Shown: positions 1-11,313 of the stretch, one piece after another
How the letters are laid out: every line of letters starts with the position of its first letter
How positions within the stretch are numbered: position 1 is the first letter of the stretch
IMG/VR virus record: IMGVR_UViG_2703718815_000011
Span: 1 to 11,313 of that record
Direction: 5' to 3' (one strand)
DNA: 11,313 bases
Origin: a virus
Lineage: Duplodnaviria > Heunggongvirae > Uroviricota > Caudoviricetes
Translations under genes and position numbers: made by a program
Notes under the pieces: model-generated
Told to the model about the DNA's origin: nothing
What the model saw: only the letters and a program-made list of their open reading frames with translations
Databases searched by the model: none

Positions 1-645
1 CGCCCGACGCAGTTCGCGGTTTGCCATATGCAGTGATGGTAAAACCAGGTCATCCGCTCGCGTTTCAGTAAACGATGGCAGCGACTGCACAATGTCCGCC
101 ACAGTTTCTGTTTTAATATCTTCCTGTGTTGCAGCCTCCTGTACTGGTAACGCAACACCTGCGGGCTGAGGAAAGGCCTTACCAGCAGTTTCCGCTACCG
201 ATGCTGCTTTCAGCTCTGCTGGTAAATTATCGCCCGGTATGCAGTAACGAAATTTACCGCTCTGATTTACGCGAAGCAGACGACCTTTGCTGATTGCCAT
301 TGCCAGCGTTGAAGCCACTTTGCGTGATGTGGTACCAAACAATGTAGCCAGCTCATCCGCCGTTTGTGGTCCACGTTGTTCAATCGTCGCAGTTAAATCG
401 CTCTCTGAAATTTTCGCGACTGTTGCCGTGGTAGTTTCTTCCGGCAGTTCTGCCGGCGCTGGCTGTTCCTGCTGAACGTTGTTATCAGCCACACGCCAGG
501 TGTACGCGCTTTTATCAACGAAACCAGCCTTTTTCAGTTCCCATAGTTCGTTCAGCACTTCTTCACGACTGATATCAAGTCGCGCAGCAAGTTCTATGGA
601 TGTGGCTTTTCCCATTGCTTTCAGTGCATCAAAAACGGTTTCCAT
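1..645 (-). CDS. Tandem winged-helix (DUF1627-like) prophage protein, partial: C-terminus lies beyond the window start (at least 215 codons in window)
   Basis: Hand translation of the minus strand in the frame of the ATG at 643-645 finds no stop down to position 1 ([56 protein letters not shown]...[50 protein letters not shown]...). GGGAGG Shine-Dalgarno 8 nt upstream of the ATG. Two repeated wHTH-like segments. Absent from the ORF track because its stop is outside the window. The plus-strand ORFs 287-475 and 479-664 are its antisense shadows. Confidence 0.75.
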
Positions 646-679
646 TAAAATTTCCTCCCGGTAAAAATTACTTCTCAAC

Positions 680-1345
680 TCAAACAAAACCAGCCGCTTT
701 CCGGCGTTCATACTCCTGTTTCAGCAACTCAATTGGCGTTGGTCCCGACGGGCGTTTTGGTGCTGCCAGTTGTCGCCGGACTGGCGGAACGCTCAGGCCG
801 TTACTAACATGCTTTGCCCATTTCGTCAGCTGCCGTTCTGCAAGCCGTTTTAATTCCCCTTCGGTCATCTGGCGCTCAATCCCCTTTGAACGCATCTCGA
901 GGCAAATGTGATACAGCACAGGTTGAGTCCACGGGTATTTATCGCTTCCGTCGTATCGCCAGGACTCATTGCGCCAGCGTCGGTACTCCTCCATCACGGC
1001 ATCCACCGTCAGACCGAATGGATTTGCCCCACTCTCCGAAATCAGCGCCACAAACTCAGCCAGGTCCGGAGGCCATGTTTCACCTGCCCTGCAACGGTCC
1101 ATGCACTGGCGGCAGACCTGCCGGATTTGCTGCTCAGTCATCGCGCCAATCTGTGCAATCCATAGCTTCGAAGGTGCGGCCCCGTTCTTCTGGGTCCAGC
1201 GGTTCGAATAAACCTCCCCCATGAGTTCCCACAGCTTCCAGGCCGTTTCCGTCGCTGATAAATCCGTTTTCACGTTCCCACTGCTCACGTGCTGCCCGAA
1301 TTTCCTGAACTGCCCGTGATGCGGTGCCACCTGGCTTTGCTGCAT
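680..1345 (-). CDS. Lambda P-like replication protein (DnaB helicase loader family), 221 aa
   Basis: C-terminal two thirds align by eye with lambda P (e.g. [12 protein letters not shown]... / [19 protein letters not shown]... versus lambda FLPSPGQFVAWC... / YPWKSNAHYWLVTNLYQNMRA...). ATG at 1343-1345 is preceded on the minus strand by AGGGGGTG 4 nt upstream. Sits immediately downstream of the initiator-like gene, as O-P does in lambda. Confidence 0.8.
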
Positions 1346-2153
1346 GGTTCACCCCCTTGCTGACTGGTTTAACCTGCGCCCTGACGTGATTTACGTGACG
1401 GGCGAATTTCTGTTCCCACTGAACCTGCGTGAAAACTTTCCCCTCCGCTGCCCAGTAGTCCCGGAAGGCGGCAAGTTCAGCAGGTGTAAATTCCGGCTCT
1501 GGCGGAGCCGCTCCCCACAGTGCAGCCCGTCGTCGGAAATCCGGCGACGGATTCCAGCCGTCGGTCATCGGAAATTTTCCGATAGGTTCGCTCAGGCCTT
1601 CTAGGTAATCAGGTTCCGCTGCCTGCAACGGCAAACCATTCGACTCACTGGTCGGAGCACTCTCGCGCACGCGCGCGCTATGTGTGGGGTTTAATTCTTT
1701 TAGATCTGTATCTGTATCTTTATTAGTTGCTTTTGTGTTTGCGTCATGTTCAAACACCACACCAACATTTGTTTGAACACCTGTTAAATCTCTCTCTTGT
1801 TTTTTTTGAATATCTGCTTCCTTTCTGCTTCTTCTGGCTTGAACAGATGCTTTTCCGGCGGCTGATTTTTTGGTTAATTTTTCCCTGACTGATGCCAGAT
1901 CTTCCTCAATCCGAAGATGCACCCATTCATCGCCGTTATCGCAAAAAAACTCCCGCAAGGATGGTTCCACATCAGCCCATCGCTCGTTAGTCAGACGGGA
2001 AATTTTTGCCAGCCTGTTTTTGGGTATTGGCTTTCCTGTTTGCCAGTAATTGAACATCAGCAACAAATACGCACCGTGCTCCTCTGCTGACAAATGCATG
2101 GTGTCAGCCAGGTAATCAGCTATGTACAGTTGCATGTATGGTAATGCGGCCAT
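1134..2153 (-). CDS. YdaU-like replication initiation protein: N-terminal DUF1376 domain, K/E-rich linker, C-terminal DnaT/O-like region (339 aa from ATG at 2153; an upstream in-frame ATG at 2204 would give 356 aa)
   Basis: Long minus-strand ORF. DUF1376-like signature MAALPYMQLYIADYLADTMHLSAEEHGAYLLLMFNYW starts exactly at the ATG at 2151-2153, which has a weak GGGG SD; the ATG at 2202-2204 has no SD. C-terminal segment FTPAELAAFRDYWAAEGKVFTQVQWEQKFARHV resembles primosomal/O-like C-terminal domains. Start choice is uncertain. Confidence 0.7.
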   Translation of the reverse strand: MAALPYMQLYIADYLADTMHLSAEEHGAYLLLMFNYWQTGKPIPKNRLAKISRLTNERWADVEPSLREFFCDNGDEWVHLRIEEDLASVREKLTKKSAAGKASVQARRSRKEADIQKKQERDLTGVQTNVGVVFEHDANTKATNKDTDTDLKELNPTHSARVRESAPTSESNGLPLQAAEPDYLEGLSEPIGKFPMTDGWNPSPDFRRRAALWGAAPPEPEFTPAELAAFRDYWAAEGKVFTQVQWEQKFARHVNHVRAQVKPVSKGVNHAAKPGGTASRAVQEIRAAREQWERENGFISDGNGLEAVGTHGGGLFEPLDPEERGRTFEAMDCTDWRDD

Positions 2154-2216
2154 AATTGCCCCGTATGATGCTGCCCGGTGGCTTACAATAAGCACAAACA
2201 GCATGGAAACTTTTGC

Positions 2217-2639
2217 TTAATGAACAATGAAAGAATCGTCGGAAGACCCGCCGCCGCTGAAATGCGCTTTACGGTAAACGGCCTGGACTGCGTCATCATG
2301 CGCATCAATTGCCGTACTCAACGCTTCCTGCGCCGCCAGTAATGCACGGCGTTCCAGGGTATCGAAGATGCAGAGTCGGTGACGCAGCTCGCGCGGAAGG
2401 ATTGCCAGAATTGCAGGGATCAGTTTCTGAATTTTTACCCTTTGCGCCTCCGTTTCACCTTTTAACCAACGGTGATAGATGTTCTGCTGATTATTCCAGT
2501 CCTTGCCTGGTACCAAGGGCAATTCGCCGCCCCCCTGGCGCAGATATTCTTCAGTAATTGCGTTAGCGACCCACGCCTGCCCTTTTTCAGCGGCTAGGGC
2601 TAACAACACTGATTCGATGTGCTCATGCCTGATTTTCAT
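2217..2639 (-). CDS. ydaT: YdaT-like protein (reported CII-like regulator / former putative toxin), 140 aa
   Basis: 140-aa ORF, the length I recall for K-12 Rac YdaT. AGGAG SD 7 nt upstream of the ATG at 2637-2639. Lies 10 nt downstream of the Cro-like gene on the same strand. Confidence 0.8.
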   Translation of the reverse strand: MKIRHEHIESVLLALAAEKGQAWVANAITEEYLRQGGGELPLVPGKDWNNQQNIYHRWLKGETEAQRVKIQKLIPAILAILPRELRHRLCIFDTLERRALLAAQEALSTAIDAHDDAVQAVYRKAHFSGGGSSDDSFIVH

Positions 2640-2649
2640 GAATCAACTC

Positions 2650-2898
2650 CTATGCATTTTGTGTGTTAGCCTTACATCCAACAGGTAAACCATCGGTCGG
2701 ATTCGGGTAGATATCAGGCCGGAGTTCATGAGGTGTAACCTCGAAATTCGTTACTTCAGCAACACGTAATGCTTTTTCAGGGCTGAATCTTTCATAGCCC
2801 CCCAGCACTCGACTTACATGCACCTGAGATAAACCCGTTAGCTTCCCAAACTGTAGCTGGGTGATATTTTTCTCTTTTAAATAGTCTCTTAAGTTCAT
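2650..2898 (-). CDS. ydaS: Cro-like HTH (XRE family) regulator, YdaS-like, 82 aa
   Basis: HTH motif NITQLQFGKLTGLSQVHVSRVLGG. First real ATG is at 2896-2898 (the track's M at 2902-2904 is TTG). AGAAGG SD upstream on the minus strand. Divergent from the CI-like repressor gene. I recall K-12 YdaS as slightly longer, so the allele or start may differ. Confidence 0.7.
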   Translation of the reverse strand: MNLRDYLKEKNITQLQFGKLTGLSQVHVSRVLGGYERFSPEKALRVAEVTNFEVTPHELRPDIYPNPTDGLPVGCKANTQNA

Positions 2899-2927
2899 AG
2901 CCAACCTTCTACGTTATGCCTCGAGAA

Positions 2928-3000
2928 AATATTAGCCCCACTAATTTTAAAGATCAATAGTCAGACTATCTTTGATAATATTGGTAAAACAAATAAACTC
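2928..3000. promoter_or_regulatory. Divergent immunity promoters and operator: PR-like (minus strand, -10 TAATAT = plus 2928-2933, -35 TTGATC = plus 2952-2957, 18-nt spacer); PRM-like (plus strand, -35 TTGATA 2972-2977, -10 TAAACT 2994-2999); 13-bp palindrome ATAGTC-A-GACTAT at 2957-2969 between the two -35 elements
   Basis: Hexamers and palindrome read directly from sequence. Architecture matches a lambdoid OR region between CI-like and Cro-like genes. No promoter-scoring software was run. Confidence 0.45.
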
Positions 3001-3005
3001 TATGT

Positions 3006-3467
3006 ATGAAAAAAACACGCGAAGTGATTGCAACTCCAGAAGCGAGCAAGAATTTAAAAGCCGCATGGAATGCAAGAAAAAAAGAGCTGAAGCTGACTCA
3101 AGAGCTGGCGGCTGAGTTGTTGGGATTCGAATCTCAAGGCACCGTTAGCCAGTATCTGAACGGCAAGATACCGATAAATACCGACGCTGCGCTAAAATTT
3201 GCGGCTCTGTTAAAGGTAAAACCAGAGGACATTCGAGAAGACCTTAAAGACTTAATGAATTATGTAAGATCATCAGATACTTATGATGATAGCTTTTCAG
3301 GCAAAGGATGGAGGCTGGTCAATGAAGAACAGGCAGAGTTACTTAACCTCTTCGAGATTCTACCTGCGTCAGAAAAAGCCAAACTCCTTAACCAGCTACG
3401 TGGACTAAACAAGCTCTACGAGGAAGCCTTCGAGAACATGCTGGCACTAAAGAAACGCAACCAGTAG
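3006..3467 (+). CDS. racR: CI-type prophage repressor, HTH_XRE N-terminal domain, no recognisable S24 (LexA-like) autopeptidase domain; RacR-like, 153 aa
   Basis: HTH LTQELAAELLGFESQGTVSQYLNGKIPINTDAALKFAALLKVKPEDI. No SD upstream of the ATG at 3006 and a -10-like element ends ~6 nt upstream, suggesting a leaderless mRNA as for lambda cI from PRM. Followed by a strong terminator. Confidence 0.75.
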   Translation: MKKTREVIATPEASKNLKAAWNARKKELKLTQELAAELLGFESQGTVSQYLNGKIPINTDAALKFAALLKVKPEDIREDLKDLMNYVRSSDTYDDSFSGKGWRLVNEEQAELLNLFEILPASEKAKLLNQLRGLNKLYEEAFENMLALKKRNQ

Positions 3468-3493
3468 CCACCGCTCACTACCCCATCCACAAC

Positions 3494-3524
3494 AAAAAAA
3501 ACCGACGTCTTAGTCGGTTTTTTT
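3494..3524. terminator. Bidirectional intrinsic terminator (A-tract, CCGAC-GTCTTA-GTCGG stem-loop, T7 tract)
   Basis: AAAAAAAACCGACGTCTTAGTCGGTTTTTTT read directly from sequence, 27 nt after the repressor stop. The A-tract/T-tract symmetry means it can terminate transcripts from either strand. Confidence 0.7.
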
Positions 3525-3621
3525 GTGCCATAACTTCTGCAAATCAGCTGTATAACTAATATTTTTCCCTTGAAAAAACATTTACTTAGTTACCAAATCA
3601 AAAACATCATACGTCACACTG

Positions 3622-3650
3622 TTGACTTGAAATATCCGTATTACTAATAT
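3622..3650 (+). promoter_or_regulatory. pL-like sigma70 promoter: TTGACT (3622-3627), 17-nt spacer, TAATAT (3645-3650)
   Basis: Near-consensus hexamers with optimal spacing, 68 nt upstream of the first gene of the + strand early operon (3718). The -10 lies inside a 15-bp motif that is repeated 88 bp upstream. Confidence 0.55.
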
Positions 3651-3717
3651 TTCTATCAAGAACAGCACGGCGCTGTAGGTTTTAGTTCCGCCACCCGGCG
3701 TTAAGGGGAGAGATAAG

Positions 3718-4023
3718 ATGACATTTACTCAGAGTATTGACCCGCCAGAAACGAATAATGCTGTATTTTGCCTGGCGTATGAATTGTCTGTACAAGCATC
3801 AACAATGGCAAAGGAGAGAGAGCTAACTCCAAGGCAGGCACGTCTCGCACTGGAACTCGCCAGCCGGGTATCAGTAGCAAAAAAAATCGCACCAGCCGTA
3901 ATGGCACGAAACCTGGCTAATGCAATTACAGATGTCAGGTCACTACAACCATACAATTATCATGTCGAAGAGGCATTAGAAAAATTAATCGCTGCTGCGG
4001 ACGCCATCATTGATGAACTGTAA
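3718..4023 (+). CDS. Hypothetical small Ala-rich helical protein, 101 aa; first gene of the early-left operon (the position N occupies in lambda, but no arginine-rich motif)
   Basis: Strong SD AAGGGGAGAG 6-8 nt upstream of the ATG; protein-like composition. Function unknown. Confidence 0.7.
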   Translation: MTFTQSIDPPETNNAVFCLAYELSVQASTMAKERELTPRQARLALELASRVSVAKKIAPAVMARNLANAITDVRSLQPYNYHVEEALEKLIAAADAIIDEL

Positions 4024-4218
4024 TAATTGATATGCGGGAGAATTTCTATTCCTGAGAGACGCATTTTTCACGCCCGGACAACGCCCGGCAATTGCCAGAT
4101 TCAGTTTTTCACGCTGCTCTGGCGTAAGAAGTTTAACAAGTTCTTCAAGAACAAGCGTGGTAGCCTCTAATCTGGCGGAAAGATAATCAATATTTTTGTG
4201 TTGAGATTGAATAGGCAT
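3985..4218 (-). CDS. Hypothetical 77-aa protein on the opposite strand in the sieB-equivalent position; convergent with, and overlapping by 39 nt, the 3718-4023 gene
   Basis: ATG at plus 4216-4218 with TAAGGA SD 7 nt upstream on the minus strand. Candidate extended -10 promoter upstream. Product MPIQSQHKNIDYLSARLEATTLVLEELVKLLTPEQREKLNLAIAG... is soluble and helical; it is not SieB-like (SieB is a membrane protein). Confidence 0.5.
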   Translation of the reverse strand: MPIQSQHKNIDYLSARLEATTLVLEELVKLLTPEQREKLNLAIAGRCPGVKNASLRNRNSPAYQLLQFINDGVRSSD

Positions 4219-4250
4219 AAGCAATTCCTTACTGGTTGTGTGAGAACTCC

Positions 4251-4279
4251 AGTATACCACCGAGCCTGAAGTGGTAAAA
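4251..4279 (-). promoter_or_regulatory. Candidate extended -10 promoter for the 3985-4218 gene (minus-strand TGgTATACT; weak -35 TTTTAC)
   Basis: Minus-strand sequence ...TTTTAC-N17-TATACT with TG at -15/-14, read from the reverse complement of 4251-4279. Weak -35, so low confidence. Confidence 0.3.
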
Positions 4280-4448
4280 AGACAGGCATACAACACGAAG
4301 GCGCATTTCCGGTATCCATAAAGAGTCGGTCTTGTCTGTGAAATTTAAATGGTGGGAGTGCGCCTCCGGTTGTGAATAACAACACTGCTGTGTGTAGTCT
4401 TGGCGGCATCAGTTTTTTCTTGAAGTACGACTGATGTCTGCCCTTTTT

Positions 4449-4594
4449 AAAGTGAATTTTGTGATGCGGTGAATGCGGCTAAGCGCACGCGGCACAGTTA
4501 AAAGCATCAGTGTTATGGGTGGATTATCCGGCGTTAATTGTTAACTGGTTAACGTCACCTGGAGGCACCAGGCACCGCATCACAAAATTCACTT
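4449..4594. repeat. Perfect 22-bp inverted repeat AAGTGAATTTTGTGATGCGGTG (4449-4470) / CACCGCATCACAAAATTCACTT (4573-4594) flanking a 102-bp segment
   Basis: Exact reverse-complement match verified base by base. The right arm ends 22 nt before the ATG of the 4616 gene. The enclosed segment contains GTTAACTGGTTAAC (two palindromic GTTAAC hexamers). Confidence 0.9.
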
Positions 4595-4615
4595 AGTAAC
4601 CAAGAAGGGAATTAT

Positions 4616-4888
4616 ATGCAAGAGATAAGTTTTGAAGTAACAGCAAAAGATGTACAGGTTAAGCCCGATTACAATCAAAAATTATGTATTGAAGTCAATG
4701 GCGTGAAGTTATCAGACCTGATTGATTCAGTTGAAGATAACGACGCTATTATTGAAATGGTTGGAGCCGAAGAAATAGCAGAATACTTTTCAACAGAGGG
4801 GCGTCTTCATGAGCTTCTGGAAAAATTTTCATATCAGGATATCGCTACATTTCTGGAAATTAATGGTTATAAAGTTACCGAGGAATAA
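4616..4888 (+). CDS. Hypothetical highly acidic small protein, 90 aa (about 21 D/E versus 7 K/R)
   Basis: AAGAAGGGA SD 6 nt upstream of the ATG. Charge counted directly from the translation. No family recognised. Confidence 0.7.
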   Translation: MQEISFEVTAKDVQVKPDYNQKLCIEVNGVKLSDLIDSVEDNDAIIEMVGAEEIAEYFSTEGRLHELLEKFSYQDIATFLEINGYKVTEE

Positions 4889-4906
4889 AGTAGCTCAGGT
4901 GGCGTT

Positions 4907-5116
4907 ATGGAACGTAATCATCTAACAGCTATCAGTGCCGCACAGAGTAAATTCGCCATCGCTGTATTTTTACAGGATGAAGAAATGTTTGAGCAGGCCA
5001 TTATTCAGTTTGCAATTGCGACCGGGAGTAAAATAAATGAACACTTTGTTCGCTCTTGTCATGACCGTTTTTCTGACATCAGGCGAAACTCAGGATGTTG
5101 TTACCGGAATTTATAA
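4907..5116 (+). CDS. Hypothetical 69-aa ORF; its 3' third overlaps the next gene out of frame
   Basis: AGGTGG SD 4 nt upstream. N-terminal 43 aa look protein-like, but the C-terminal part falls in the overlap with the 5037 gene and looks poor. It could be real, shorter, or spurious. Confidence 0.3.
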   Translation: MERNHLTAISAAQSKFAIAVFLQDEEMFEQAIIQFAIATGSKINEHFVRSCHDRFSDIRRNSGCCYRNL

Positions 5117-5273
5117 CTCCGAATCTGAATGCAAGGCCGCAGCTATTGAGCAAAAAGTAGCTGGTGAATGTTTCCCTGTTGAGAAATTTATCCGGCCTGT
5201 AGATGAAGAAATTCCCGCAGGCCTCACAGGAGAAAATCATGAAAATAAAATGTGGTTACCACCTTTGCAATAA
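5037..5273 (+). CDS. Hypothetical 78-aa protein with N-terminal hydrophobic segment and two Cys; occupies the position of kil/kilR upstream of ydaE
   Basis: GGGAG SD 8 nt upstream of the ATG. N-terminus MNTLFALVMTVFLTSG is hydrophobic without a basic n-region (membrane anchor rather than a classical signal peptide). Assignment as a KilR homologue is positional only; I cannot recall the KilR sequence. Confidence 0.55.
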   Translation: MNTLFALVMTVFLTSGETQDVVTGIYNSESECKAAAIEQKVAGECFPVEKFIRPVDEEIPAGLTGENHENKMWLPPLQ

Positions 5274-5403
5274 AGACGTTGAAGAAAGCAAAACTATTAC
5301 AAGACCACTTCATTTCATGCGTGGAGTTATCCCAACGACGGAAATGAAAAAATATTGTAGTGAAAATTGTGCCGAAAAAGACCAGATGGCACACGAACTT
5401 TAA
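5239..5403 (+). CDS. ydaE: YdaE-like small Cys4 (zinc-binding) protein, 54 aa
   Basis: MKIKCGYHLCNKDVEESKTITRPLHFMRGVIPTTEMKKYCSENCAEKDQMAHEL, with Cys pairs C5/C10 and C40/C44. GGAG SD 6 nt upstream of the ATG at 5239; the track's upstream ATG at 5203 has no SD. Lies between the kil-position gene and racC, as in Rac. Confidence 0.65.
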   Translation: MKIKCGYHLCNKDVEESKTITRPLHFMRGVIPTTEMKKYCSENCAEKDQMAHEL

Positions 5404-5477
5404 TTAACTGACTATTCGAAACTGAATTTATGCCAGCAATGGCAGGGATTCGCTCAACCTTAATTAAGGAGAAAAAC

Positions 5478-5753
5478 ATGATTACCAATTATGAAGCCAC
5501 TGTTGTAACTACCGATGACATTGTTCACGAGGTTAATCTGGAAGGAAAGCGTATTGGCTACGTGATTAAAACAGAAAATAAAGAAACCCCATTCACTGTG
5601 GTTGATATCGACGGTCCATCAGGCAACGTAAAAACACTTGATGAAGGTGTCACAAAAATGTGCCTGGTTCACATCGGAAAGAATCTGCCCGCAGAAAAAA
5701 AAGCCGGATTTCTGGCAACTCTGATTGCAATGAAATTAAACGGTGAAATCTGA
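5478..5753 (+). CDS. racC: RacC-like protein, 91 aa, function unknown
   Basis: AAGGAG SD 8 nt upstream of the ATG at 5478. Sequence MITNYEATVVTTDDIVHEVNLEGKRIGYVIK... matches my recollection of Rac RacC. Immediately upstream of recE. Confidence 0.8.
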   Translation: MITNYEATVVTTDDIVHEVNLEGKRIGYVIKTENKETPFTVVDIDGPSGNVKTLDEGVTKMCLVHIGKNLPAEKKAGFLATLIAMKLNGEI

Positions 5754-5758
5754 AAGAA

Positions 5759-5783
5759 ATAGCCTGCGTATGGCGCAGGCTAT
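5759..5783 (+). other. GC-rich hairpin (10-bp stem ATAGCCTGCG / CGCAGGCTAT, 5-nt loop) in the racC-recE intergenic space, with no following U-tract
   Basis: Inverted repeat read directly from sequence. The lack of a T-run argues against an intrinsic terminator and for an RNA stability or processing element. Confidence 0.45.
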
Positions 5784-5854
5784 GAACAGTGTGTATCCGG
5801 CAAGATCATTCACTGAACAAAACGAATTTTAATCTGAGTTGAGGTTAAAAAACA

Positions 5855-8527
5855 ATGAGCACAAAACCACTCTTCCTGTTACGGAAAGCGAAAAAATCAT
5901 CCGGTGAACCTGACGTCGTCCTGTGGGCAAGCGACGATTTTGAATCGACCTGTGCCACTCTGGACTACCTGCTCGTTAAGTCAGGTAAAAAACTGAGCAG
6001 CTATTTTAAACCTGTTGCCACGAATTTTCCTGTCGTTAATGACCTTCCCCCTGAAGGTGAGATCGATTTTACCTGGAGTGAACGCTATCAACTCAGCAAA
6101 GACTCCATGACCTGGGAACTAAAACCGGGAGCAGCGCCAGACGACGTTCACCATCAGGAGAATGCACCGGAAACCGAAGAACCGGCGGGAGGCCAGGAAG
6201 AAAACACACGGGCAGACGCTCACGGGGATTGCCAGGATTGCGAAGTATCTGTATCTACTTTGCGGTTCACACAGCGTCTTCTGCACATTTTTACCTATGC
6301 GGCCGGGGATCGGAAATACCTGCATCATGCCACCCGAGAACAACGCGAACACATTACTGCTCTTGAGATGGATCAGGAAAACAGCTATGTCCAGAATCTG
6401 CTGTTGGCCATACGCGGCATGGCAGAACCGACAACTCTGGATAATGCCGCCCTGCTCCGCCTGACTGATGCAATTAAGGCAGTTTTCTCTATCACGAAAA
6501 AACATCAGCCCTATGAATTTAAGAATTTCATTTCAGCCTGGCTGGATACCGAACACATTGATCGCGGTCTTCTGACAAAAGAATGGCGAAGTGGGAATCG
6601 TGTTTCACGCATCACTCGCACGGCTTCCGGTGCTAATGCTGGCGGCGGGAACCTCACCGATCGCGGCGAAGGTTTCGTCCACGATCTGACGTCACTGGCG
6701 CGCGATGTAGCCACTGGCGTACTGGCCCGTTCAATGGACGTGGACATCTATAACCTTCATCCGGCACACGCTAAACGCATTGAGGAAATTATCGCTGAAA
6801 ATAAACCGCCCTTTTCTGTTTTCCGCGACAAATTCATCACCATGCCTGGCGGGCTGGATTATTCACGCGCCATCGTGGTTGCGTCCGTGAAAGAAGCACC
6901 AATTGGGATCGAGGTCATCCCCGCGCACGTCACTGAATATCTGAACAAAGTACTGACTGAAACCGATCATGCCAACCCTGATCCGGAAATCGTGGATATT
7001 GCCTGCGGTCGCTCCTCTGCCCCGATGCCGCAGCGTGTAACAGAAGAAGGAAAACAGGATGATGAAGAAAAACCGCAACCATCTGAAACAACGGCAGATG
7101 AACAGGGAGAGGCTGAAACAATGGAACCGGACGCAACTGAACATCATCAGGACACGCAGCCGCTGGATGCTCAGTCACAGGTAAATTCTGTTGATGCGAA
7201 ATATCAGGAACTGCGGGCAGAACTCCATGAAGCCCGGAAAAACATTCCATCAAAAAATCCTGTCGATGCCGATAAATTACTTGCTGCATCACGTGGTGAA
7301 TTTGTTGACGGAATTAGCGACCCGAACGATCCGAAATGGGTTAAGGGGATCCAGACTCGCGATTCTGTGTACCAGAACCAGCCAGAAACGGAACAAAACA
7401 CGCCAGAAACGGAAAAAACCAGCCCGGATGTGAAACAACCTGAGCCAGTAGTGCAACAGGAACCGGAAATAGTCTGCAATGCCTGCGGTCAGACTGGCGG
7501 GGATAACTGCCCTGACTGTGGTGCGGTGATGGGCGACGCAACATACCAGGAAACATTCGGTGAAGAGAATCAGGTTGAAGCTAAGGAAAATGATCCGGAG
7601 GAAATGGAAGGCGCTGAACATCCGCACAATGAGAATGCTGGCAGCGATCCGCATCGCGATTGCAGTGATGAAACTGGCGAAGTCGCAGATCCCGTAATCG
7701 TAGAAGACATAGAGCCAGGTATTTATTACGGAATTTCGAATGAGAATTACCACGCGGGTCCCGGTGTCAGTAAGTCTCAGCTCGACGACATTGCTGATAC
7801 TCCGGCACTGTATTTGTGGCGTAAAAATGCCCCCGTGGACACCACAAAGACAAAAACGCTCGATTTAGGAACCGCTTTCCACTGCCGGGTACTTGAACCG
7901 GAAGAATTCAGTAACCGCTTTATCGTAGCACCTGAATTTAACCGCCGTACAAACGCCGGAAAAGAAGAAGAGAAAGCGTTTCTGATGGAATGCGCAAGCA
8001 CAGGAAAAACGGTTATCACTGCGGAAGAAGGCCGGAAAATTGAACTCATGTATCAAAGCGTTATGGCTTTGCCGCTGGGGCAATGGCTTGTTGAAAGCGC
8101 CGGACACGCTGAATCATCAATTTACTGGGAAGATCCTGAAACAGGAATTTTGTGTCGGTGCCGTCCGGACAAAATTATCCCTGAATTTCACTGGATCATG
8201 GACGTGAAAACTACGGCAGATATTCAACGATTCAAAACCGCTTATTACGACTACCGCTATCACGTTCAGGATGCATTCTACAGTGACGGTTATGAAGCAC
8301 AGTTTGGAGTGCAGCCAACTTTCGTTTTTCTGGTTGCCAGCACAACTATTGAATGCGGACGTTATCCGGTTGAAATTTTCATGATGGGCGAAGAAGCAAA
8401 ACTGGCAGGTCAGCTGGAATATCACCGCAATCTGCGAACCCTGGCTGACTGCCTCAATACCGATGAATGGCCAGCTATTAAGACGTTATCACTGCCCCGC
8501 TGGGCTAAGGAATATGCAAATGACTAA
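5855..8527 (+). CDS. recE: Exodeoxyribonuclease VIII (RecE), 890 aa, with C-terminal PD-(D/E)xK exonuclease domain
   Basis: N-terminus [26 protein letters not shown]... and the C-terminal ~300 aa (...[24 protein letters not shown]...[36 protein letters not shown]...) match RecE as I recall it. Its stop overlaps the recT start, as in Rac. Confidence 0.95.
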
Positions 8528-9329
8528 GCAACCACCAATCGCAAAAGCCGATCTGCAAAAAACTCAGGGAAACCGTGCACCAGCAGCAATTAAAAATAAC
8601 GACGTGATTAGTTTTATTAACCAGCCATCAATGAAAGAGCAACTGGCAGCAGCTCTTCCACGCCATATGACGGCTGAACGTATGATCCGTATCGCCACCA
8701 CAGAAATTCGTAAAGTTCCGGCGTTAGGAAACTGTGACACTATGAGTTTTGTCAGTGCAATCGTACAGTGTTCACAGCTCGGACTTGAGCCAGGTAGCGC
8801 CCTCGGTCATGCATATTTACTGCCTTTTGGTAATAAAAACGAAAAGAGCGGTAAAAAAAACGTTCAGCTAATCATTGGCTATCGCGGCATGATTGATCTG
8901 GCTCGCCGTTCAGGTCAAATCGCCAGCCTGTCAGCCCGTGTTGTCCGTGAAGGTGACGAGTTTAATTTCGAATTTGGCCTTGATGAAAAGTTAATACACC
9001 GCCCAGGAGAAAACGAAGATGCCCCGGTTACCCACGTCTATGCTGTCGCAAGACTGAAAGACGGAGGTACTCAGTTTGAAGTTATGACGCGCAAACAGAT
9101 TGAGCTGGTGCGCAGCCAGAGTAAAGCTGGTAATAACGGACCGTGGGTAACTCACTGGGAAGAAATGGCAAAGAAAACGGCTATTCGTCGCCTGTTCAAA
9201 TACCTGCCCGTATCAATTGAGATCCAGCGTGCAGTATCAATGGATGAAAAGGAACCACTGACAATCGATCCTGCAGATTCCTCTGTATTAACCGGGGAAT
9301 ACAGTGTAATCGATAATTCAGAGGAATAA
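8520..9329 (+). CDS. recT: Recombinase RecT (single-strand annealing protein), 269 aa
   Basis: [23 protein letters not shown]...; the ATG at 8520 overlaps the recE stop (ATGACTAA). AAGGA SD upstream. The track's longer 288-aa ORF starts at an upstream in-frame ATG inside recE. Confidence 0.95.
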
Positions 9330-9385
9330 TTCAGCCTGGCGGTGTAATGCACCGCCAACTTGAAATATTTTTTATGAGAAAAATT

Positions 9386-9580
9386 ATGAGATATGACAAT
9401 GTTAAACCATGTCCATTTTGTGGTTGTCCATCTGTTACGGTGAAAGCAATTTCAGGATATTACCGGGCAAAATGCAACGGATGCGAATCCCGAACCGGCT
9501 ATGGTGGAAGTGAAAAAGAAGCACTCGAACGATGGAATAAACGAACCACTGGAAATAATAATGGAGGTGTTCATGTATAA
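9386..9580 (+). CDS. ralR: RalR (restriction alleviation protein; reported DNase toxin of a type I toxin-antitoxin pair with the sRNA RalA), 64 aa
   Basis: MRYDNVKPCPFCGCPSVTVKAISGYYRAKCNGCESRTGYGGSEKEALERWNKRTTGNNNGGVHV, with Cys4 motif. Start chosen at 9386 to give the 64-aa product; in-frame ATGs also at 9374 and 9347. Confidence 0.85.
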   Translation: MRYDNVKPCPFCGCPSVTVKAISGYYRAKCNGCESRTGYGGSEKEALERWNKRTTGNNNGGVHV

Positions 9581-9761
9581 AATTACCGCCACTATTGAAA
9601 AGGAAGGTGGCACTCCTACTAACTGGACAAGGTACTCAAAAACAAAATTAACCAAATCAGAATGCGAAAAAATGCTCTCAGGTAAAAAAGAAGCTGGCGT
9701 TTCCAGAGAGCAGAAAGTAAAACTGATAAATTTTAATTGCGAGAAACTTCAGTCGTCGTGA
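9573..9761 (+). CDS. ydaC: YdaC-like small protein, 62 aa, function unknown
   Basis: MYKITATIEKEGGTPTNWTRYSKTKL... GGAGG SD 5 nt upstream of the ATG at 9573. Overlaps the ralR stop by 8 nt. Confidence 0.8.
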   Translation: MYKITATIEKEGGTPTNWTRYSKTKLTKSECEKMLSGKKEAGVSREQKVKLINFNCEKLQSS

Positions 9762-9793
9762 ATTGCATTGTATTCAAATTAAAACTTCATAGC

Positions 9794-9809
9794 TGATTAT
9801 TAATAATCA
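9794..9809. promoter_or_regulatory. Perfect 16-bp palindrome TGATTATTAATAATCA, 51 nt upstream of xis
   Basis: Self-complementarity verified by hand. It lies in the only intergenic gap between the recombination genes and xis-int, so it is a candidate regulator-binding site. No function demonstrated. Confidence 0.3.
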
Positions 9810-9860
9810 ACATCGGGCGTCAATTTCAGTCTAACATTGGCGCCTGCCAGAGGTGATGCG

Positions 9861-10076
9861 ATGGCACAAGTAATCTTTAATGAAGAGTGGATGGTTGAAT
9901 ACGGCCTGATGCTTCGCACTGGTCTGGGGGCCAGACAAATTGAAGCATACCGCCAGAACTGTTGGGTGGAAGGCTTCCACTTCAAACGAGTATCTCCTTT
10001 AGGGAAGCCAGACAGTAAGCGAGGGATTATCTGGTACAACTATCCAAAGATAAATCAGTTTATCAAAGACTCATGA
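9861..10076 (+). CDS. xisR: Excisionase (Xis family), 71 aa
   Basis: [80 protein letters not shown] upstream of the ATG at 9861. Stop is 1 nt before the int start. Confidence 0.85.
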
Positions 10077-10077
10077 T

Positions 10078-11313
10078 ATGTCTAAATTACCAACAGGTGT
10101 CGAGATTCGAGGTAAATACATTCGCATCTGGTTCATGTTTCGAGGAAAACGATGTCGGGAAACATTGAAAGGCTGGGAGGTTACTAACAGTAACATTAAA
10201 AAGGCCGGAAATTTAAGAGCGTTGATAGTTCATGAAATCAACTCCGGTGAATTTGAGTATTTAAGACGTTTTCCCCAGTCCAGTACTGGGGCAAAAATGG
10301 TGACAACGAGGGTCATAAAAACGTTCGGCGAGCTTTGTGATATCTGGACAAAAATTAAAGAAACAGAGTTAACAACAAACACAATGAAGAAAACGAAATC
10401 ACAATTAAAAACACTCAGGATAATAATTTGTGAGAGTACCCCGATATCACATATTCGTTATAGCGATATCTTAAACTACCGGAATGAACTGCTGCATGGA
10501 GAAACGCTTTACCTGGATAATCCAAGATCCAACAAAAAAGGAAGAACCGTGCGCACAGTTGATAACTATATTGCCCTGCTCTGTTCGTTGTTACGTTTTG
10601 CGTATCAGTCGGGATTTATATCAACCAAACCATTTGAAGGAGTAAAAAAATTACAGCGAAACAGAATAAAGCCTGACCCGTTATCTAAAACAGAATTCAA
10701 TGCATTAATGGAAAGTGAAAAAGGACAGAGCCAGAACTTGTGGAAATTTGCCGTTTACTCCGGGCTTCGTCACGGGGAACTGGCTGCTCTGGCGTGGGAG
10801 GATGTGGATTTCGAGAAGGGAATTGTGAATGTCAGAAGAAACCTGACGATACTTGATATGTTCGGTCCCCCAAAAACAAATGCGGGGATCCGGACGGTAA
10901 CACTACTACAGCCTGCTCTTGAAGCACTGAAGGAGCAATACAAACTGACCGGGCATCATCGCAAAAGCGAAATCACCTTTTATCATCGGGAGTACGGCAG
11001 AACCGAAAAGCAAAAACTGCATTTTGTTTTCATGCCCAGAGTGTGTAACGGAAAACAGAAACCTTATTACTCGGTAAGCAGTTTGGGTGCGAGATGGAAT
11101 GCAGCTGTAAAACGTGCTGGTATTCGCCGCCGTAATCCGTACCATACGCGACATACTTTTGCCTGCTGGCTGTTGACGGCAGGAGCGAACCCGGCATTTA
11201 TAGCCAGCCAGATGGGGCATGAAACTGCGCAGATGGTGTATGAAATTTACGGTATGTGGATTGATGACATGAACGACGAACAGGTAGCCATGTTGAATGC
11301 GCGGTTATCGTAG
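10078..11313 (+). CDS. intR: Tyrosine site-specific integrase (lambda Int family), 411 aa, Rac IntR-like
   Basis: N-terminus MSKLPTGVEIRGKYIRIWFMFRGKRCRETLKGW. Catalytic-domain motifs (...YSGLRHGELAALAWEDVDF..., ...HTRHTFACWLL..., ...MGHETAQMVYEIYGMW). Stop codon TAG is the last 3 bases of the window. Confidence 0.95.
   Translation: MSKLPTGVEIRGKYIRIWFMFRGKRCRETLKGWEVTNSNIKKAGNLRALIVHEINSGEFEYLRRFPQSSTGAKMVTTRVIKTFGELCDIWTKIKETELTTNTMKKTKSQLKTLRIIICESTPISHIRYSDILNYRNELLHGETLYLDNPRSNKKGRTVRTVDNYIALLCSLLRFAYQSGFISTKPFEGVKKLQRNRIKPDPLSKTEFNALMESEKGQSQNLWKFAVYSGLRHGELAALAWEDVDFEKGIVNVRRNLTILDMFGPPKTNAGIRTVTLLQPALEALKEQYKLTGHHRKSEITFYHREYGRTEKQKLHFVFMPRVCNGKQKPYYSVSSLGARWNAAVKRAGIRRRNPYHTRHTFACWLLTAGANPAFIASQMGHETAQMVYEIYGMWIDDMNDEQVAMLNARLS

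Follow-up and report, generated by a model that had tools for sequence, protein, structure and literature searches.

Two exchangeable cassettes around a conserved KilS-leader linker in the early-left region of a Rac-like prophage

The DNA analysed here is an 11,313-nucleotide stretch assigned to the Caudoviricetes (IMG/VR record IMGVR_UViG_2703718815_000011, positions 1 to 11,313), which we refer to as the window. It matches E. coli STEC005 (goat, NZ_CP041437.1) at 100% identity, where the site is a Rac-like prophage. We investigated the segment from 3718 to 5273, which lies between the repressor gene and the ydaE-racC-recET block and contains five small open reading frames (ORFs). On the plus strand, the order is a helix-turn-helix (HTH) repressor, a hairpin terminator, a pL-like promoter candidate, the five ORFs, ydaE, racC, recE, recT, ralR/RalA, xis, and int.

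The initial annotation, made from the sequence, had listed ORFs of 101, 77, 90, 69, and 78 residues, and all five are present at these sizes and positions. ORF1 (101 residues, 3718 to 4023, plus strand) is the first gene after the pL-like promoter. ORF2 (77 residues, 3985 to 4218, minus strand) is given in its ATG form, the mechanically called ORF extending to a GTG at 4296. ORF3 (90 residues, 4616 to 4888, plus strand) is the first gene after a structured leader and is followed by two genes named from profile matches, a lambda-type kil (69 residues, 4907 to 5116, plus strand) and a ydfD-like gene of the DUF1482 family (78 residues, 5037 to 5273, plus strand). Three features of the layout had been missed: ORF1 and ORF2 are convergent, with their 3' ends overlapping by 39 bp; the 69- and 78-residue ORFs overlap by 80 bp; and the gap of about 400 bp from 4219 to 4615 is a conserved regulatory region and not cargo. 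The NCBI Prokaryotic Genome Annotation Pipeline (PGAP) annotation of STEC005 covers four of the five ORFs, leaving the 69-residue ORF unannotated.

The reported absence of SieB was confirmed, as tblastn searches with K-12 SieB and a second SieB sequence gave no match in the window. Likewise, a tblastn search of the window for KilR, YdaF, YdaG, DicB, and RacR found nothing (best E value 0.049, elsewhere in the window).

Cassettes and conserved linker

The segment consists of two cassettes (cassette 1, 3721 to 4255; cassette 2, 4616 to 5240) on either side of a linker (4256 to 4615). In a blastn comparison, the K-12 Rac prophage (racR-ydaG-ydaF-sieB-kilS-kilR-ydaE-racC-recET) aligns over three stretches only, namely, 3682 to 3720 (100% identity over 39 bp, just upstream of ydaG), 4256 to 4615 (84%), and 5241 to 5900 (94%). 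The alignment is broken at both cassettes, and the K-12 genes in the two gaps are ydaG-ydaF-sieB and kilR, respectively. The first conserved stretch (3682 to 3720, plus strand) holds the ribosome binding site and leader of the first early-left gene and forms the left edge of cassette 1, and ydaE (5239 to 5403, plus strand; NCBIfam YdaE, 88.5 bits) opens the third and forms the right edge of cassette 2.

Each cassette is also found without the other. STEC383 shares 2900 to 4615 at 98% identity and carries kilR thereafter, and cq9 and W13-16 share 4291 to 5900 at 97% with ydaF-type genes upstream. Cassette 1 (3700 to 4260) is present in 18 and cassette 2 (4612 to 5238) in 17 of 5,426 complete E. 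coli genomes, and the two occur together in a single genome, STEC005. Draft assemblies contain them more often, the exact cassette proteins being found on 16 to 858 contigs. The earlier view of a variable segment between conserved Rac genes is supported by these data, and the same gene set is clearly not present in all Rac-like prophages. The single swapped-in module that had been proposed, however, has to be replaced by two independently exchanged cassettes flanking the linker, the 77-residue gene being a separate predicted transcription unit on the opposite strand. Judged by these alignments, the arrangement is the classic mosaic of lambdoid phages, with gene boundaries as the points of exchange.

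The prophage shares with K-12 Rac the backbone and gene order, with linkers that are 84 to 100% identical, an opposite-strand gene between the first pL-side genes and kilS, and a division inhibitor after the leader. It differs in that the conserved convergent ORF1/ORF2 pair, unrelated to ydaG-ydaF-sieB, takes the place of these genes, that ORF3-kil-ydfD-like replaces kilR, and that the repressor is not RacR-like.

The linker contains a homolog of the small RNA (sRNA) KilS (4352 to 4448, plus strand), aligned to K-12 kilS (b4833) at the syntenic site with 91.8% identity over 97 nt and located upstream of a kil-type gene. It is predicted to fold with -33.2 kcal/mol (z score -2.8), and its 3' half (4389 to 4443) forms a DicF-like terminator hairpin followed by a U-run (UUUUU). 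The match to the Rfam DicF family (RF00039; 37.2 bits, E value 5.6e-6) stays below the gathering score of 48, so we describe the KilS homolog as related to DicF and do not file it as a member. The DicF alignment covers the terminator hairpin only, the 5' half being about 37% identical to that of Qin DicF; with a KilS-type 5' half, targets that depend on the DicF seed cannot be assumed. KilS of K-12 was predicted by RNA interaction by ligation and sequencing (RIL-seq), confirmed by northern blot, and shown by these methods to accumulate as a discrete Hfq-associated RNA; it can be transcribed from a promoter of its own (PMC8175672). Our literature search on KilS with Rac, Rac-SA53, and ymfI/ymfJ returned no functional data beyond this discovery paper.

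Directly downstream lies the structured 5' leader of the division inhibitor cassette (4449 to 4597, plus strand), closed by a 22-bp stem that pairs 4450 to 4471 with 4574 to 4595. Its predicted fold is strong (-66.7 kcal/mol, z score -6.6), none of 200 shuffled sequences being as stable. The leader matches the full-length STnc100 model (RF02076) with 41.4 bits (E value 4.6e-7), short of the gathering score of 47, and the strength of the fold suggests a divergent relative. It is 88% identical to the dicF-dicB leader of Qin and 79% identical to the kilR leader of K-12 Rac. PGAP places an incomplete DicB pseudogene at 4510 to 4590 (plus strand); this call sits inside the conserved structured noncoding leader, and K-12 DicB shows no similarity to the stretch, which makes an annotation error likely. 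In Qin, regulation by a CI-like repressor is known, and RNase III and RNase E process the operon mRNA to give DicF (PMC10448788).

Cassette 2 takes the place of kilR, behind a KilS/DicF-like sRNA and long leader of the type found ahead of kilR in K-12 Rac and of dicB-ydfD in Qin. The 69-residue ORF scores 32.1 bits at residues 10 to 32 against the Kil family (PF06301; cut-off 27.6) and also matches three Kil families of PHROG. The profile covers only the N-terminal third of the protein; lambda Kil is 47 residues long. NCBI uses the name Kil for an identical protein on 620 contigs, and W13-16 has the gene annotated as kil. The gene occupies the early-left position of kil genes, between the leader and ydaE/racC/recET and thus upstream of the recombination genes. 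By profile and position, the 69-residue ORF is a lambda-type Kil, predicted to be a host cell division inhibitory peptide.

The 78-residue protein matches DUF1482 (PF07358) with 73.6 bits (cut-off 25) and is 51% identical to YdfD of K-12 Qin over all 63 residues (E value 2e-23), with both cysteines conserved. It has a hydrophobic N-terminus (maximum 19-residue hydropathy of 1.25 at residue 4) and 15 more C-terminal residues than K-12 YdfD. Its phage homologs are annotated as YdfD and adjoin DicB. K-12 YdfD lyses dividing cells by binding IspG, and the lysis is prevented by coexpressed division inhibitors (PMC8835842). As in Qin, the ydfD-family gene overlaps a preceding division inhibitor gene, which is kil here and dicB in Qin, so that the combination of division inhibitor and overlapping ydfD recurs, with Kil replacing DicB. 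The two overlaps differ in length (80 bp here, 4 bp in Qin). The segment resembles the Qin dicBF operon (dicA-ydfABC-dicF-dicB-ydfD) in its leader, in the DicF-like terminator hairpin of the sRNA, and in the order of inhibitor and ydfD-family gene, and differs from it by the lambda-type Kil, the KilS-type sRNA body, and the extra acidic ORF3 before kil.

ORF3 has an isoelectric point of 4.2 and a net charge of -14 over 90 residues. It belongs to phrog_7311 (8.7e-18), a PHROG family with no assigned function, and has a weak match to DUF5983_N below the cut-off. An identical protein is found on 461 contigs of E. coli and Salmonella, labelled "hypothetical" throughout, and a PDB search gave no match. 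Its acidity allows, and does not show, a role as a DNA mimic or other inhibitor. For both ORF3 and Kil, a tblastn search against 50,697 phage records gave no match.

The initial annotation had recognised no family for any of the five ORFs. This holds for ORF1 and ORF2, applies to ORF3 only in that its PHROG family lacks a function, and fails for Kil and the YdfD-like protein, which belong to well-characterised families. The roles of these two families are in host takeover and not in phage housekeeping, so that the general idea of a slot for host-takeover genes survives, both Kil and the YdfD-like protein being examples of such cargo.

The convergent ORF1/ORF2 pair and its promoter cassette

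ORF1 and ORF2 have no family in Pfam, PHROG, NCBIfam, or PADLOC, and the PADLOC defence models match no ORF of the segment. The ORF1 family comprises 15 clusters among 5.8 billion proteins, all from Enterobacterales; the ORF2 family comprises 6 clusters in the same set and 5 further representatives among 1.84 billion proteins. Among the 50,697 phage records, tblastn with both proteins found only the hypothetical genes rac11 and rac10 of phage Rac-SA53, and a profile scan of species genomes for ORF1 gave no confirmed locus. A Pantoea homolog of ORF2 has 54% local (49% aligned) identity and the same gene arrangement. The convergent overlap, of 36 to 39 bp, is kept at every ORF2-bearing locus examined, that is, at at least 10 divergent loci in five genera. 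Ratios of nonsynonymous to synonymous substitution (dN/dS), calculated pairwise over loci from E. coli, Salmonella, Pantoea, and Lelliottia (pair range 0.19 to 0.42), are 0.2 to 0.4 for ORF1 and 0.19 to 0.29 for ORF2. By these ratios and the retained overlap, ORF1 and ORF2 are real genes, and the ratios indicate purifying selection.

The AlphaFold2 models from family alignments are of low confidence, and we took them to be uninformative. ORF1 is predicted to be all-helical with four helices (predicted local distance difference test score [pLDDT] 63.5) and ORF2 to fold into three helices (pLDDT 69.4); for neither model did Foldseek find anything in the PDB below an E value of 1. Profile searches of PDB sequences with ORF1 and ORF2 returned only designed helical proteins and a histone, which we ascribe to composition. 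ORF2 is a basic (isoelectric point 9.0), soluble protein with no 19-residue hydrophobic stretch. It has no Pfam match to SieB (PF14163), and neither of the two SieB queries found it by tblastn. Matches of ORF2 to LTXXQ or to the IraP anti-adaptor (Pfam E values 0.04 to 0.09) lie far below the cut-offs and were not used. We also considered ORF1 as a lambda N-type antiterminator and rejected this; it is acidic (isoelectric point 5.1), has no Arg-rich N-terminus and no Pfam match, and shares with N the position alone.

ORF1 is modular: the motif ITPKDARLALELASRVS lies in its N-module, and its C-module is about 42 residues long. Three unrelated N-modules are found on one type of C-module adjoining ORF2 homologs: the ITPKDARLALELASRVS type, the type of e14 YmfJ, and a type with the motif LPxEV..IAAK. 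The identity of ORF2 follows that of the ORF1 C-module (Spearman 0.68) better than that of the N-module (0.42), the pairs not being independent and the correlations therefore descriptive only. Chimeric first early-left genes, in which a YmfJ-like or the third type of N-module precedes an ORF1-type C-module, were seen in loci L043 (2657 to 2935), L017 (4202 to 4627), L018 (931 to 1251), and L044 (2651 to 2968), each on the minus strand and each beside an ORF2 homolog.

Upstream of ORF2 lies a conserved cassette of predicted promoter and 5' untranslated region (UTR) (4219 to 4290, minus strand), identified by consensus scan and alignment. It consists of a -35 element TTTACC, a 16-nt spacing, an extended -10 element TGG-TATACT, and a UTR of about 30 nt that ends in the Shine-Dalgarno sequence TAAGGA. 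In an alignment of 11 upstream regions, the cassette is near-identical in front of ORF2 homologs with 35 to 50% protein identity and in front of an unrelated 92-residue gene. It matches in 1,754 of the 5,426 genomes, in 416 of them at a coverage of at least 80%. In K-12, it is only partially present upstream of sieB, and the sieB gene of locus L015 lacks it; in the e14 element of K-12, it lies directly upstream of ymfI, and in PEC178, upstream of a 64-residue gene that overlaps a 72-residue first gene. Besides ORF2, the opposite-strand slot holds SieB (K-12 and L015), a 92-residue Cys-rich protein (L008 to L010), YmfI (e14), or the 64-residue protein (PEC178). The 92-residue protein (L008 to L010, 4332 to 4610, minus strand) has a CxxC ... 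CPNHG pattern and a faint zinc-ribbon match and is encoded behind the promoter cassette of some Rac-like prophages. Two further cassettes (L046, 1501 to 1564; L047, 1501 to 1554) have no adjoining annotated gene on the opposite strand and have yfdP/yfdQ or rdgC downstream; small unannotated ORFs or remnants may lie beside them.

The repressors of cassette-bearing prophages differ, being DicA-like here, the LexA-family CohE in e14, and other HTH proteins elsewhere. With the same promoter kept next to different repressors, we infer that the cassette promoter is free of immunity control and that, like sieB, the genes behind it can be expressed in the lysogen. At the other end of the unit, a weak terminator-like hairpin with a T-run (3887 to 3909, minus strand) is located 76 to 98 nt past the ORF2 stop codon, inside ORF1 antisense. 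A similar hairpin is found in Lelliottia L013 and no clear one in Pantoea L007 or in L006.

The closest parallel for the position of ORF2 is sieB (with esc) of lambda and P22, an exclusion gene of the pL region expressed in the lysogen. ORF2 is in the slot of SieB of K-12 Rac and L015, has the same orientation to the operon, and seems to be transcribed as a unit of its own within the early-left genes. In sequence, ORF2 has no similarity to SieB; SieB is a protein of 160 to 210 residues with membrane segments, whereas ORF2 is soluble and has 77 residues. Exclusion is a conjectural function for ORF2.

A second parallel is the ymfJ/ymfI pair of K-12 e14 (locus L021, 1904 to 2564). Here, the first gene after the repressor gene cohE also converges on an opposite-strand gene, with a 63-bp 3' overlap; the promoter cassette, 92% identical, lies ahead of ymfI; and in L043, a YmfJ-type N-module is fused to an ORF1-type C-module beside an ORF2 homolog. 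Homology of YmfJ to ORF1 and of YmfI to ORF2 was rejected (hhalign probability below 1%), and the likeness is architectural only.

A probable division and lysis operon with a proposed lysogen-expressed passenger

Most of the segment is a new combination of known parts. The explanation that we consider probable is that the segment is a promoter-proximal early-left accessory region with two exchangeable cassettes, a division and lysis cargo, and a lysogen-expressed ORF2. By analogy to the characterised homologs, loss of the repressor would allow the pL-like promoter to transcribe ORF1, then KilS and the leader, and then ORF3-kil-ydfD. The leader would be processed by RNase III and RNase E, as in Qin. 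Kil would block assembly of the FtsZ ring and arrest division, and the YdfD-like protein would attack envelope precursor synthesis, like the IspG inhibitor YdfD, whose lysis is restrained in Qin by the coexpressed division inhibitor (PMC8835842). ORF2 would be made in the lysogen from its own predicted extended -10 promoter, as is sieB, and, from the relative position of the genes, head-on transcription from pL together with antisense RNA might turn it down upon induction.

From its slot, ORF2 would most likely provide a lysogen-expressed accessory function like those found there in other prophages, such as superinfection exclusion or host protection. The C-module of ORF1, which is always present where ORF2 is, may, by its position, be an induction-time partner or antagonist of ORF2. 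Taken one step further, the C-module and ORF2 could form a two-part system similar to SieB/Esc, in which constitutively made ORF2 aborts or excludes superinfecting phages and ORF1, the first product of the pL-like promoter upon induction, switches ORF2 off together with the antisense RNA and lets the resident phage grow. The promoter cassette would then mark a general lysogen cargo slot, with matches in about a third of E. coli genomes, for exclusion and defence genes that would include ORF2, the 92-residue Cys-rich protein, e14 YmfI, and the 64-residue protein besides SieB. We regard this extended version, drawn by analogy, as doubtful.

Several observations weigh against the proposed explanation or parts of it. 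ORF1-type proteins also occur without ORF2, the slot then being occupied by SieB (L015) or by the 92-residue Cys-rich protein (L008 to L010), which weakens the model of a dedicated partner. No family, whether of exclusion, defence, toxin-antitoxin, or other function, was matched by ORF1 or ORF2, and their models lack structural neighbours, so that it is only the position that suggests an exclusion role; ORF2 has no membrane segment, unlike SieB. The promoter and terminator of ORF2 are consensus matches only, the terminator not being clearly conserved, and in the linker both the DicF and the STnc100 scores are below the Rfam gathering thresholds.

Alternatively, ORF1 and ORF2 could be a toxin-antitoxin-like or guard pair, with one toxic product that the other gene neutralises by its protein or its overlapping antisense RNA, and serve prophage stabilisation or abortive infection. 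The strict coinheritance of the pair, with each ORF2 homolog examined overlapping an ORF1-type C-terminus, fits this idea, as does the closer tracking of ORF2 identity with the C-module (rho 0.68) than with the N-module (0.42), and the 3' overlap would provide a built-in antisense pairing. The covariation can be explained by the physical overlap alone, however, and ORF1-type genes are also found beside SieB or the 92-residue gene instead of ORF2. The genes are convergent, whereas type II systems are codirectional; neither protein resembles the small hydrophobic toxins of type I systems; and no toxin or antitoxin domain was matched in PADLOC, Pfam, or NCBIfam. Moreover, ORF1 is under the repressed pL-like promoter and so cannot be a constitutive antitoxin. 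That the prophage already has a type I toxin-antitoxin pair, RalR/RalA, speaks for the idea, yet overall we find such a function unlikely.

The opposite-strand unit could also act as a transcription insulator, in which head-on transcription blocks leaky read-through from the pL-like promoter into kil/ydfD in lysogens, with the cargo ORF in second place. In favour of this, promoter and UTR are far more conserved than any cargo and are common to unrelated genes, their place is invariably between the first pL-side gene and the KilS/kil region, and expression of the genes downstream is lethal (PMC8835842, PMC10448788). A promoter of its own is possible for KilS, however (PMC8175672), and control on the toxin side would then not hang on pL only. 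Some cassette-bearing prophages lack a kil-type gene further down; SieB, another occupant of the slot, is known to function as a protein; and the ORF2 protein is under purifying selection across genera, as the dN/dS values given above indicate. These points make a pure insulator improbable.

A third proposal, that the unassigned ORFs are anti-restriction or anti-defence early genes, with acidic ORF3 as a DNA mimic analogous to Gam, Ocr, or Ral in a RecET phage that lacks Gam, can draw on the charge of ORF3, on its early position beside kil and upstream of recET, on the lambda map, which keeps ral, cIII, kil, and gam in the region corresponding to the kil/recET neighbourhood, and on the fact that we noticed no Gam homolog among the window ORFs, but it appears very improbable to us, acidity alone being weak evidence and the only relatives of ORF3 being PHROG 7311 and the subthreshold DUF5983_N, with none in the PDB.

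For annotation, Kil, the YdfD-like lysis protein, and KilS can now be named at this locus, where the reference annotation misses kil and calls a DicB pseudogene inside the leader. For phage biology, the comparison presents three unrelated division inhibitors, KilR, DicB, and lambda Kil, swapped behind one conserved arrangement of sRNA and leader, and a YdfD-type lysis protein that travels with more than one division inhibitor. The promoter cassette furthermore offers a sequence handle for gathering candidate lysogen-expressed exclusion and defence genes opposite the early-left operon. The overlapping ORF1/ORF2 pair is the best-conserved example of this promoter-marked slot, and pair and slot together provide a modest, testable lead.

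Neighbouring features of the prophage

The pL-like sigma-70 promoter candidate (TTGACT-17-TAATAT, 3622 to 3650, plus strand) was found by consensus scan and placed by analogy with lambdoid pL. The left flank contains the HTH repressor gene (3006 to 3467), followed by the hairpin terminator at about 3496 to 3524. The immunity region (2217 to 3467) differs in type from that of K-12 Rac: its repressor shows no resemblance to RacR and matches the DicA family only weakly, and the genes divergent from it are YdaS/YdaT-like, which indicates that the immunity module was likewise exchanged. A bidirectional terminator hairpin at 3491 to 3564 (minus strand) has subthreshold Rfam matches (STnc370 with 31 bits, E value 0.087, and others), which probably reflect the terminator shape only.

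On the right flank, ydaE is followed by racC (5478 to 5753, plus strand). Further downstream, the sRNA antitoxin RalA is encoded in full (210 bits in Rfam, where the gathering score is 170), antisense to the ralR gene region (9579 to 9757, minus strand; 9386 to 9580, plus strand), indicating that the type I toxin-antitoxin pair of Rac is intact in this prophage.

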